Positions 41,636 through 61,291 of a stretch of DNA of 64,000 nucleotides are shown in pieces. Source of the DNA: Clostridiales bacterium (GTDB taxonomy: Bacteria; Bacillota; Clostridia; Christensenellales; Borkfalkiaceae). Location: contig SVHK01000001.1 in the NCBI GenBank assembly GCA_015055865.1, positions 6,628-70,627 on the forward strand. The letters are read 5' to 3'. Positions within the stretch are counted from its first letter, which is position 1; the number at the start of each line of letters is the position of its first letter. A program made the translations under genes and the position numbers. The notes under the pieces are model-generated. The model did no database searches, was not told the DNA's origin, and saw nothing but the letters and a program-made list of their open reading frames with translations.

Positions 41636-42775
41636 ATGATTTATTTTGACAACGCCGCCACGGGAGGCACAAAACCCGAAACCGTTTTAACCGCCGTCAA
41701 GGGCGCGATTTCGCTTTGCGCTAACCCCGGTAGGAGCGGACACAAACTCTCGCTTGCCTGCGCGCAAACCGTTCAAAATTGCAGAACGGTACTCTCGGAA
41801 TATTTCGACGGCTACGGATTCGAACGCACGGTTTTTACGAAAAATTGCAGTGAAGCGCTCAATCTTGCCCTGTTCGGGCTATTAAAAAAGGGCGACCACG
41901 TCGTTACCACCACGCTCGAACACAATTCCGTACTCCGTCCTTTGGAAGTTTTACGCCAACGGGGAATAATCACCTACGACGTTTGCCCGCTCGTCAACGG
42001 CGAAATCTCGCCCAAGCAAATTTTACGGCTCGTCAAACCCCATACCCGTATGGTCGTTTTAACGACCGCGTCCAACGTAACGGGAAAGAGCGTACCCGTG
42101 TACGAGATTAAACAAGTTTTACCCGAAAACGTCCTGCTTATTTGCGACGGTGCGCAAGGGGGCGGACATTTACCGATTTCAATGAAAAAATGGGGCGTCG
42201 ACGCGCTTGCGCTCGCCGGTCATAAGGGGCTAATGGGCATACAGGGTAGCGGTGCGTTGCTCCTTTCCGAGCGTTGCGACGTTGAGCCGTTACTTTACGG
42301 CGGTACGGGGTCGAGTAGTTTTTCGCTCGATATGCCCGACTTTTTGCCCGACAGATTAGAAGTCGGCACACTATCTTTTCCTGCTATCGTTGCGCTCTAC
42401 GAAGGCGTGCAATACTTAATGACGGACGGAAAAAAGGCGAACGAAAAAACGTACGCCTTGACGAAATATTTATGCGAAAAACTTCACGCAAATCCGCATT
42501 ATAAAATATATTCCGCCCCAAATTTATGCGGTATCGTCGCGTTTGCAAACAGGAATTTGCAATCGGAAATCGTATCCCATCTTCTTTCGGACGTCTATTC
42601 GATTGCGGTACGGGGCGGACTGCATTGCGCTCCGCTTACCCATAAAGCGCTCGGAACGGGCGAGAACGGACTCGTTCGCGTGTCTTTTTCGCATTTCAAT
42701 ACCTACGCGGAAATCGACGAATTACTCGTCGCGCTTGACAAAATCGCAACCGCTAACGCCGACGGACTTATTTGA
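41636..42775 (+). CDS. Class V aminotransferase / cysteine desulfurase family protein
   Basis: It has YFDNAAT at the N-terminus and the PLP-Lys region AGHKGLMGIQGSG. The ATG at 41636 is preferred over the GTG at 41627. Confidence 0.85.
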   Translation: MIYFDNAATGGTKPETVLTAVKGAISLCANPGRSGHKLSLACAQTVQNCRTVLSEYFDGYGFERTVFTKNCSEALNLALFGLLKKGDHVVTTTLEHNSVLRPLEVLRQRGIITYDVCPLVNGEISPKQILRLVKPHTRMVVLTTASNVTGKSVPVYEIKQVLPENVLLICDGAQGGGHLPISMKKWGVDALALAGHKGLMGIQGSGALLLSERCDVEPLLYGGTGSSSFSLDMPDFLPDRLEVGTLSFPAIVALYEGVQYLMTDGKKANEKTYALTKYLCEKLHANPHYKIYSAPNLCGIVAFANRNLQSEIVSHLLSDVYSIAVRGGLHCAPLTHKALGTGENGLVRVSFSHFNTYAEIDELLVALDKIATANADGLI

Positions 42776-58890: not shown

Positions 58891-58941
58891 AAAAACACTC
58901 CGAATATTTATTGCAAATACCCCTTGCGTTCTTTACGAACG

Positions 58942-59060
58942 TTCTTTTCTCATCCGGACTATACCGTCGGTTTTGGAATTTCACCAAATCGGGAAACGTT
59001 TAAAACACGTTTCTTCGCAGACTTTACTGCCGGTGGGGAATTACGCCCCGCCCCAAAGAA
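58942..59060 (-). promoter_or_regulatory. FMN riboswitch (RFN element)
   Basis: On the minus strand it reads GGGGCGGGGCGUAAUUCCCCACCGGCAGUAAAGUCUGCGAAG...CCGAUUUGGUGAAAUUCCAAAACCGACGGUAUAGUCCGGAUGAGAAAAGAA, which matches the conserved RFN core blocks. Confidence 0.87.
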
Positions 59061-59074
59061 TATTTACGATATTT

Positions 59075-59103
59075 ATTATACTATCAACGCTTTAAGAAGT
59101 CAA
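59075..59103 (-). promoter_or_regulatory. Sigma-A promoter of the FMN riboswitch/ribU unit (TTGACT-17-TATAAT)
   Basis: On the minus strand the -35 lies at 59103-59098 and the -10 at 59080-59075. Confidence 0.65.
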
Positions 59104-59123: not shown

Positions 59124-59467
59124 AAAAACAACCCTATAGTCGCTCTTCCTGTAGGGAATTGCGACAACTAAATAAATCCTTACGGATTTGTGATATTCGT
59201 CTAACGACGAGTGATATTGCCTTTCGGCAGTTATATTCGCCTGACGGCGAGTTAAGGATTTATTTAATATAACTTTGGCGTAGCCAAAATATAACTGCTT
59301 GTAAAACAAGCAATACAACTTTTAGCCACAAGGCTAAAAATATAACTTATTAAACTTAATCTTTTGTGGATAAGAAAAGCCCACCATATTTCGCTTTTTG
59401 CGAAGTATAGTGGGCTATACTTTTGTTATGAACTAAAAATCCCTAAGAGCGACTAAGGGTTGTTTTT
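59124..59467. repeat. Inverted-repeat-bounded element containing a tandem array of mini-hairpins (MITE-like element or structured RNA)
   Basis: The terminal inverted repeats are aaaaacaaccct(a)tagtcgctctt (59124-59147) and aagagcgactaagggttgttttt (59445-59467). Inside are 3 units of GTGATAT plus hairpin (59190-59250), 4 units of ATAYAAC plus hairpin (59267-59375) and a 17-bp terminator-like hairpin (59378-59416). Confidence 0.6.
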
Positions 59468-59494
59468 CTTTTTTTAATTTGAGAGCATAAGCCT

Positions 59495-59822
59495 GCTTGG
59501 CGTTAGATACGAGCAACAACGTCCCGTTGTATCGAGTCTTTCTATCTTTCCGCTACGCTTGGGTGTTGCCTTCTCGTCAACCAAGCTCTTGCTTGGCGTT
59601 AGCTACGAGCAACAACGTCCCGTTGTATCGAGCCTTTCTATCTTTCCGCTACGCTTGGGAGTTGCCTTCTCGTCAACCAATTAAACTCGTGCTTGGCGTT
59701 AGATACGAGTAAGACAAGGCGTATTGAGTACGCCGACGGGAGTTTACTTTATCGTAAACGAGCTAGGCGCACGGAAATACAACGCAGTATTACGAAGTAT
59801 ATAACGCCAAGAGAACGTCAAG
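59495..59822. repeat. Modular intergenic repeat, locus D (two M1 units at a 96-nt period plus a divergent M2-like unit)
   Basis: M1 at 59495-59586 and M1 at 59591-59680 differ at 3 of the first 90 positions. A third unit starts with the same gcttggcgttagatacgag arm at 59691. The locus lies directly downstream of the histidine kinase stop. Confidence 0.85.
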
Positions 59823-59824
59823 AG

Positions 59825-61291
59825 TTAGTTAAAATAGACGTAAAAGGTCGAACCTTCCCCCACCTTACTATCCACACCGAAATTGAAGTTGTGTTTTTCT
59901 AAAATACTTTTGACGATGGAAAGCCCTAAACCCGTACCGTTCACGGGTCGTTTATGCGTTTCGCCCGAACGGTAATACCTATCCCAAATAGTAGAAAGTT
60001 CTTCTTTTTTTATACCTTTACCCGTATCGCGGACGGAGAACTTAACGGTGGAATTTTCACGTTTTAAGCTGATATATACCTTTTTATCGTCGCCCGTGTA
60101 GTTGACGGCGTTCCCGATTAAATTGTATAAAACTTGACCGATTTTTATTTCGTCCGCTTGAATGAATAAGCCGTCGTCAATGTCAAGCAAAAAGGTATAC
60201 CCTTTGTTTTCAACAAGGTAAACGAACCTGTCTAACACGTCGTATAAATAACTCGACACGTCGAATTTTGTTATTTTTAAAGCATCTAACCCCGAACGGA
60301 TTTTGGACAAATCCAACACGTCGGAAACGAGCGAAGTAAGCCTATCTGCTTCGTCTTCGATAACTTGTGCGTGCTTATTGCGTTTTTCGGGATTATCGCC
60401 CGAAATTTCGCGTATCATCGACGCGTACGCCTTAATCATCGTCAACGGCGTTTTGAAATCGTGCGAAACGTTCGCAATCAATTCCTTTTGCATTTTATCC
60501 GCCTTTGAAATTTCGTCGCGCGCAAAATTTAGCGTACCTGCTAATTCAACGATTTCGTCGCCGTACGCCCCGTCACTGAAATCGACTTCATAATCCCCCC
60601 TTGCAAACCGCCGAGTTTTTTCAGTGAGCATCGTCAAGGGTTTGACGAGCGCGCCCGAAATCGCGCTGGATACCGCAAAAGAAAGAATAAATACGAGCAA
60701 CGCAATCAAAATCATTCGAACGGTCATTTGCCCCATAACGCCGTGTAAAAACTGTAAATCGGTATTCACGTAAAGGTAAATGGGTTGTCCGTCGTAAAAA
60801 CCAAGCGACGCGCCGTAGACGTATTCGCGCGAAGCAGAATATACGACTGATTTACCGCCGTTTTGTTTGAGTTTTTCAAGCAAAATACGCGCTTCTTGTG
60901 CGTAGTCGCTACGGAAAGTATCACCGCCGTCATCGGAGATTCCGCCGTTGGGCGAATATACTTTTCCGTCCGCGCCGAGAATACAAACGTTGACGTCGTT
61001 AGAAGAACTTAAGTAACGAATGAACTCGCTGAACTGTTCGCTTTCTAAATCGTACAAGGAAGTGCGCGCCAAAACCGTTTCGATTTGCTTACCCTTTTCA
61101 ACGAGCGTTTTTTCCGTTTGACGTTCGTAAGTTTCACGAATGAGATAGCTTTGCGAAAAGGAAACTAAAAGTACGATTAAAAAAGAAAAAAGCGCGAACG
61201 CCGACCAAAGCAAAAAGTAAATACTTCCGCTTTTTTGTTTCGCTCGCGTCGCGCCTCGCTTAATTTTCGCTCTGAATTTTCCGTTCGCCAT
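59825..61291 (-). CDS. Sensor histidine kinase (TM-sensor-TM-HAMP-HisKA-HATPase_c)
   Basis: It has the H-box VSHDFKTPLTMI, N-box LIGNAVNYT and G-boxes DTGKGI / GTGLGLSIV. Confidence 0.9.
   Translation of the reverse strand: MANGKFRAKIKRGATRAKQKSGSIYFLLWSAFALFSFLIVLLVSFSQSYLIRETYERQTEKTLVEKGKQIETVLARTSLYDLESEQFSEFIRYLSSSNDVNVCILGADGKVYSPNGGISDDGGDTFRSDYAQEARILLEKLKQNGGKSVVYSASREYVYGASLGFYDGQPIYLYVNTDLQFLHGVMGQMTVRMILIALLVFILSFAVSSAISGALVKPLTMLTEKTRRFARGDYEVDFSDGAYGDEIVELAGTLNFARDEISKADKMQKELIANVSHDFKTPLTMIKAYASMIREISGDNPEKRNKHAQVIEDEADRLTSLVSDVLDLSKIRSGLDALKITKFDVSSYLYDVLDRFVYLVENKGYTFLLDIDDGLFIQADEIKIGQVLYNLIGNAVNYTGDDKKVYISLKRENSTVKFSVRDTGKGIKKEELSTIWDRYYRSGETHKRPVNGTGLGLSIVKSILEKHNFNFGVDSKVGEGSTFYVYFN

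Follow-up and report, generated by a model that had tools for sequence, protein, structure and literature searches.

A tandem array of an ERIC-type hairpin element and a genus-restricted companion module at a histidine kinase stop codon in a gut Clostridia genome

In the window, the whole stretch of 64,000 nucleotides (64 kb) that was analyzed, a histidine kinase gene occupies positions 59825–61291 of the minus strand, with an OmpR-type regulator gene upstream. The protein carries the Pfam domains HAMP, HisKA, and HATPase_c, the domain match reaching residue 487 of 488, and the TAA stop codon of the gene (59825–59827) stands directly against a repeat array at 59494–59824. Read along the minus strand, the kinase gene is followed by one unit of a repeat that we call M2, two units of a second repeat, M1, a terminator-like hairpin (59416–59368), and the promoter of a riboflavin transporter with its FMN riboswitch (58938–59103, minus strand); in most of the sister-species loci examined, the latter two lie near the kinase stop codon. 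The hairpin on the minus strand (−26.6 kcal/mol, z −7.4) is followed by UUUUCUU and is probably the end of the kinase transcript. It is not part of the array but is carried by a separate plus-strand insertion of 343 nt (59125–59467) with 23-nt inverted arms at 59125–59147 and 59445–59467. The same insertion contains the Gut-1 RNA motif (RF01706; plus strand, 59165–59241, 53.2 bits in Rfam) and has three further copies in the genome as well as copies in congeners. The sequence-only reading had placed the array in a transcribed 3′ spacer ahead of this terminator; the placement is supported, with the amendment that the terminator belongs to a second inserted element. A series of further small hairpins, joined by linkers that resemble one another, also lies in the 343-nt element. 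Parts of this element are matched perfectly by contigs of a gut metatranscriptome, a run in which the flanking genes have no cover.

Three units, all on the plus strand, make up the array: two of M1, with lengths of 96 and 100 nt, and one of M2, with 133 nt. Tandem Repeats Finder (TRF) identified 59494–59709 as a repeat with a period of 96, 2.2 copies, and a score of 363. The first M1 unit (unit a, 59494–59589, 96 nt) is 97% identical to the second (unit b, 59590–59689, 100 nt; nhmmer score 101 bits): over the first 90–91 positions, only unit positions 14, 44, and 71 differ, and the last five positions are diverged. The spacing from the second unit to the third is 100 nt, not 96. The third unit (M2, 59690–59822) repeats the first 20 nt of the M1 units exactly and then continues as a different, longer hairpin, scoring 128 bits against R1, a covariance model built from this genome's M2 copies only. 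At its far end, an 11-nt tandem duplication of the M2 outer arm (59803–59824; TRF period 11) runs directly into the kinase TAA. The 20-nt arm occurs five times in the window, always on the plus strand, with zero occurrences expected by chance. The TRF result and the comparison of the units bear out the sequence-only description of two M1 units at a 96-nt period with three differences in the first 90 positions, followed by a third unit that starts with the common arm and then turns into other hairpins, both of which are present as quoted. A recent duplication or gene conversion, suggested there on the basis of similarity, agrees with the 97% identity of the M1 units and with an M1 copy ∼9 kb away (C50:75351) that is 100% identical to unit 1 over 89 nt.

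We compared the locus with those of congeners, whose kinases show ∼55% protein identity to the kinase here. The kinase adjoins the FMN riboswitch in seven of nine congener loci; in the remaining two, the riboswitch was not found in the fetched locus (one lies ∼3.5 kb away). The spacer between kinase and riboswitch is ∼50 to 90 nt in five of the seven, holding little beyond the promoter, and ∼190 and ∼360 nt in the other two, which contain unrelated sequence. Here it is ∼760 nt and made up of the array and the 343-nt element. The array is absent from all seven congener loci with a readable spacer and, judged by this sequence comparison, is an insertion that the kinase locus of the sister species does not have. 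Metagenome contigs tend to break inside the repeats, and joints with sides of 28 to 29 nt were excluded. One contig of a divergent strain in a bovine gut run, whose kinase gene diverges by ∼7%, also has M2 at the kinase stop codon; 14 nt at 59812 and 1 nt at 59828 are missing from this contig, giving another kinase C terminus or stop-codon context. The kinase in the window ends at the end of HATPase_c (...YVYFN*), and congener proteins (loci L002, L004, and L007) are 2 to ∼25 residues longer. It may be that the insertion took the place of the kinase's original C-terminal tail.

The M2 unit at 59690–59822 is predicted to fold as one long hairpin (−41.9 kcal/mol, z −4.7). Twenty M2 copies from this genome, each unit being 125 to 133 nt long, align as a single irregular hairpin of 36 pairs in which 91% of the cells are paired. 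Twenty-two of the pairs have changed on both sides, none of 500 shuffles was as good, and controls with slid alignments were ∼30% paired, demonstrating covariation of the M2 helix. The unit next to the kinase itself contributes a compensatory change from C–G to U–A in an inner helix (pair 23–107), and the outer helix, whose sequence comes in several versions, is complementary in each of them.

The tip of M2 resembles the core of the enterobacterial ERIC element, the target of the ERIC-PCR primers ERIC1R and ERIC2, whose sequences were confirmed by exact matches in Escherichia coli K-12. With filters off, R1 matched all nine K-12 loci that contain an ERIC2 primer site, at full length and with E values from 2e-5 to 1e-2, and found no other match in the 28.6 kb of those loci. 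It also matched a degenerate K-12 copy between metR and metE. The reverse search used R2, a covariance model built from ten E. coli copies only, whose alignment was fitted to the frame of R1: R2 scored 48.9 bits on the M2 unit at 59690–59817 (E value 4e-13), and the M2 units of the window received 57.4, 52.6, 48.9, and 48.5 bits against 17.4 bits for the best non-M2 match. Searching 59494–59824 against Rfam gave no match at the gathering score nor at E values up to 10, and no Rfam family covers the proteobacterial homologs. The profile matches establish family membership: M2, ∼125 nt long with a conserved tip, belongs by sequence to the ERIC/IRU miniature hairpin elements, as a distant relative in the Clostridia of the enterobacterial repeat.

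ERIC (also IRU or RU-1) has been described as a 127-bp MITE that is co-transcribed with neighboring genes (PMC2229807, PMC10969869, PMC3184786), and reviews give its range as Enterobacteriaceae and Vibrionaceae (PMC10969869). M2 shares with it the size and the single long imperfect hairpin, the conserved tip (of the type GGAG-CTTAC ... GTAAG-TGAC) with the ACAAGG and AACGCAGT blocks, the reciprocal covariance-model matches, and a copy number that varies between relatives. Both kinds sit in transcribed spacers (presumably so for the array here), preferably at or over stop codons and in one orientation. The outer arms differ in sequence between the subfamilies yet stay complementary. Unlike the enterobacterial elements, those studied here reside in an uncultured animal-gut lineage of Clostridia, form head-to-tail arrays, and are joined to a second module, M1; flanking duplications of TA or of 3 nt are not readable in this genome.

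M1 combines the first 23 nt of M2, its left arm, with a conserved 33-nt core that contains a small hairpin (CAACG-TCC-CGTTG) and a pyrimidine tract. There are 26 occurrences of the core in this genome; it was also found in 5 of 60 congeners, there sometimes without M2, while its pattern had no occurrence in 120 other genomes of the order; M1 is a genus-restricted companion module of M2. Copies of M1 at different loci are 96 to 100% identical, and the junction sequences from M1 to M2 recur between loci, which together argue for the spread of composite units or for gene conversion. Structural support for M1 itself is slight. The closing stems by which, in the sequence-only reading, each M1 unit can fold back on itself are present in the predicted fold, but the fold of the units does not surpass that of shuffles (z −1.3 and −2.1), and the stems show no covariation among M1 copies. 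On the mRNA strand, M1 exposes a GGA in a hairpin loop, and we considered a role as a CsrA sponge; the genome contains no CsrA gene, and the idea was rejected.

Profile searches of the 1.43-Mb assembly found 38 arrays, spread over 19 contigs, that together contain 32 M1 and 53 M2 units. On every contig, all repeat units lie on one strand, and in arrays containing both kinds, M1 is on the 5′ side of M2 in the sense of the window's plus strand. Of the 36 informative arrays, at least 33 run antisense to the genes beside them, and in 27 the stop codon of a convergent open reading frame (ORF) lies at most 31 nt from the M2-side end. The TAA often overlaps the end of the M2 element in this genome, and in many loci the array fills the entire spacer from a stop codon to the next start codon within an operon. 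The claim that the repeats always have one orientation thus survived the whole-genome count, the very test that had been named as able to refute it. The clear exception is an array on contig C23, and those on C29 and at C33:19922 are ambiguous. The C23 array (42526–42756) consists of three M1 cores only, at a period of ∼94 to 99 nt, and is co-oriented with both flanking genes.

These counts bear on the possibility that the kinase operon has in the array a cis-regulatory device of its own, acting through a choice between self-closed units and junction hairpins. Complementary segments for both folds exist, and the centroid fold of the plus strand includes the junction hairpin. The whole array, however, folds barely better than its shuffles (z −1.2 on the plus strand and −2.4 on the minus strand), and the lack of covariation in the M1 closing stems applies equally here, so that the mutually exclusive folds proposed in the sequence-only reading as built into the array did not hold up; the junction hairpin simply arises where a unit's tail abuts the complementary arm of its neighbor. 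Moreover, the same units adjoin dozens of unrelated genes, before or after them, and none of the seven readable congener spacers contains the array. We therefore attach only slight credence to a dedicated device: the array is an example of a widespread repeat family and not a dedicated regulatory switch.

The two strands of M2 are not equivalent. The plus strand, antisense to the abutting gene, folds better than its complement by 5.1 kcal/mol in 34 of 37 copies from this genome, and the corresponding antisense strand does so by 9.0 kcal/mol in 67 of 70 cross-phylum copies. In the paired columns of the cross-genome copies, G–U (G–T in the DNA) outnumbers A–C by 194 to 56, and the tip stem has at its base a G–U pair that 76 of 81 copies retain; the copies from this genome alone (G–T 34, A–C 25) are indecisive for the strand, whereas the cross-genome sets are clear. 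The unpaired stretches are purine-rich on the M2 plus strand. At stop codons, the mRNA accordingly carries the weaker-folding M2 strand. With the plus strand the better folder and one G–U pair nearly invariant, a pure mRNA-hairpin role does not account for the asymmetry.

The same asymmetry, G–U excess, and purine-rich unpaired stretches would be expected if the units were genes for small structured RNAs transcribed from the plus strand, antisense to the 3′ end of the kinase gene. Against this, no promoter-like site was found on the plus strand near the array, and arrays that fill the spacers from stop to start codon leave no room for a promoter. It is also implausible that 85 units in a 1.4-Mb genome should be separate RNA genes. 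One RNA run gave almost no cover of the array, the kinase gene being likewise uncovered, which makes the run uninformative on expression. On balance, we regard genes for small RNAs as quite unlikely.

The element extends well beyond this genome. Full-length R1 matches were found in 30 of 121 sampled genomes, representing 24 of 85 genera of the same order; in G058, a genome from a different family within the order, there are 64 copies, many of them in tandem at ∼124 nt. A scan for the conserved tip pattern matched Christensenellales and Clostridia metagenome-assembled genomes (MAGs), Pseudomonas, Halomonas, Salinicola, Chlorobium, Anaerophaga, Mucispirillum, Seleniivibrio, and others. R1 matched 81 of the copies from the pattern scan, mostly at full length, and the full-length matches include Gamma-, Beta-, and Deltaproteobacteria, Chlorobi, Bacteroidota, and Deferribacterota.

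The orientation at stop codons recurs in these relatives. Counting long ORFs that end at an element, we found 20 convergent and no co-directional cases in other genomes of the order, 17 and none among the Clostridia-type copies from the pattern scan, and 16 and 2 in other phyla, with three more elements having both; in Salinicola tamaricis, the counts were 7 and 4. The genes ending at M2 homologs are unrelated to one another. The placement of the weaker strand in the mRNA at stop codons agrees with Yersinia, whose ERICs, according to De Gregorio et al. 2005, reportedly have a preferred orientation next to stop codons. In the gut genome alone, an orientation linked to replication is inseparable from one following gene direction. 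A complete Salinicola genome has 21 copies, on both strands and along the chromosome, from which we conclude, assuming an origin near position 1, that the orientation does not follow replication.

The same copies help to weigh an action at the level of DNA, in which the plus strand would fold as single-stranded DNA and serve as a site linked to recombination or replication, as do the bottom strands of integron attC sites. As in attC, the better-folding strand is antisense to the gene, and the fixed orientation right at stop codons would fit. The units are nevertheless arranged in tandem without cassette ORFs and beside housekeeping genes, for which reasons an identity with integron attC sites was set aside, and the Salinicola copies occupy both strands in both halves of the chromosome (with the origin placed as above). 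We hold such a DNA-level site to be highly improbable. Terminal inverted repeats bound the Salinicola copies, with direct repeats of 3 nt on the flanks that read TAG, TAA, or TGA; about half of the copies end a real-looking ORF. In S. tamaricis (loci L182–L201), two subfamilies have different terminal repeats, GGCTTTGTACGAAAA... and GAGGGTGTTTACAAA..., and in either one the direct repeats on the flanks invariably read as a stop codon (TAG, TAA, or TGA).

In the gut genome, the outer arms of M2 are complementary, and a flanking target-site duplication was not readable either here or in G058. Searches for the transposase families Y1_Tnp (PF01797), DDE_Tnp_1, DDE_3, and rve found none in the assembly, which is 94.5% complete and of a kind (MAG) that often loses insertion-sequence copies, so that the absence weighs little; the Y1_Tnp search gave matches in control genomes. 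We infer mobility here only from presence and absence between species. The lack of a Y1_Tnp gene also speaks against a repeat of the REP/BIME or REPIN type mobilized by a RAYT transposase. Such repeats are, like the present ones, dispersed, clustered in arrays, extragenic, and hairpin-forming. They are, however, RAYT-associated palindromes of 20 to 40 nt, whereas the units here measure 96 to 133 nt, M2 is a single 125-nt hairpin with an ERIC core and the models built from ERIC and from M2 recognize each other's copies. We scarcely credit a REP-type origin.

Two other families offer parallels. BOX of Streptococcus pneumoniae (boxA-boxB(n)-boxC) is a modular intergenic repeat of a Firmicute with a tandem copy number that varies for one of the modules; no transposase is known for it, and it is transcribed together with neighboring genes, as the array presumably is, the likeness being one of organization. 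BOX is not known to have an ERIC-type core. In Neisseria, the Correia/NEMIS element, a MITE, folds upon co-transcription into a long RNA hairpin and changes how the mRNA is processed (PMC2229807). It differs from M2 in belonging to another sequence family and in its 24-bp terminal repeats, TA duplication, and cleavage by RNase III, and no stop-codon orientation rule is reported for it in the literature covered.

The account that we consider probable is that of an ERIC-type element with a companion module, inserted at a stop codon, expanded by recombination, and co-transcribed, with at most a modest effect on mRNA decay. The array would be noncoding, mobile-type repeat DNA that widened the spacer after the kinase gene. 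M2 would have inserted at the kinase stop codon with its weaker-folding strand in the mRNA, and the 23-nt arm shared by M1 and M2 could have served as the substrate for unequal recombination or slippage, yielding the 96-nt duplication. The shared arm would also permit gene conversion between loci and so the near-identical copies found elsewhere. The array would be co-transcribed with the operon of the response regulator and the kinase as a 3′ untranslated region, up to the hairpin at 59416–59368. We infer co-transcription, the mode of spread, and any effect on the mRNA, the last of which would concern decay or processing of the kinase mRNA by analogy with Yersinia. There, ERICs at the 3′ ends of genes lower the upstream mRNA through an RNase E site, and their orientation matters (PMC2229807, PMC10969869, PMC3184786). 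By the same analogy, the most likely role of the array is that of a co-transcribed passenger that perhaps affects mRNA decay, and it may equally be a tolerated passenger.

With this identification, ∼85 units in the 38 arrays of a 1.4-Mb genome, and with them much of the 760-nt spacer, gain a name as an ERIC-type element and its companion module. Naming the repeats prevents them from being read as locus-specific regulators. The reciprocal profile matches place close architectural relatives of ERIC in gut Clostridia and several other phyla, and the rule of stop codon and orientation in these relatives is the one reported for the ERICs of Yersinia. Strand selection and stop-codon orientation can now be compared between hosts with RNase E and hosts expected to use RNases Y and J. 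A wider reading would make the ERIC-type hairpin a pan-bacterial element that has preserved its asymmetric fold in hosts as distant as E. coli and Clostridia, takes up one fixed orientation at stop codons, grows in Christensenellales-like gut bacteria into expandable arrays with partner modules such as M1, and could tune the decay of neighboring cistrons; at this breadth, we think it rather unlikely, if worth stating.

Partner modules are not confined to M1. Four loci of G058 (L254, L255, L258, and L262, at ∼1450–1500) contain another conserved accessory module beside the ERIC-like units, ctgtcatttcgaccgagcg...gagcggagaaa, which suggests that lineage-specific partner modules are a recurrent feature of this order.
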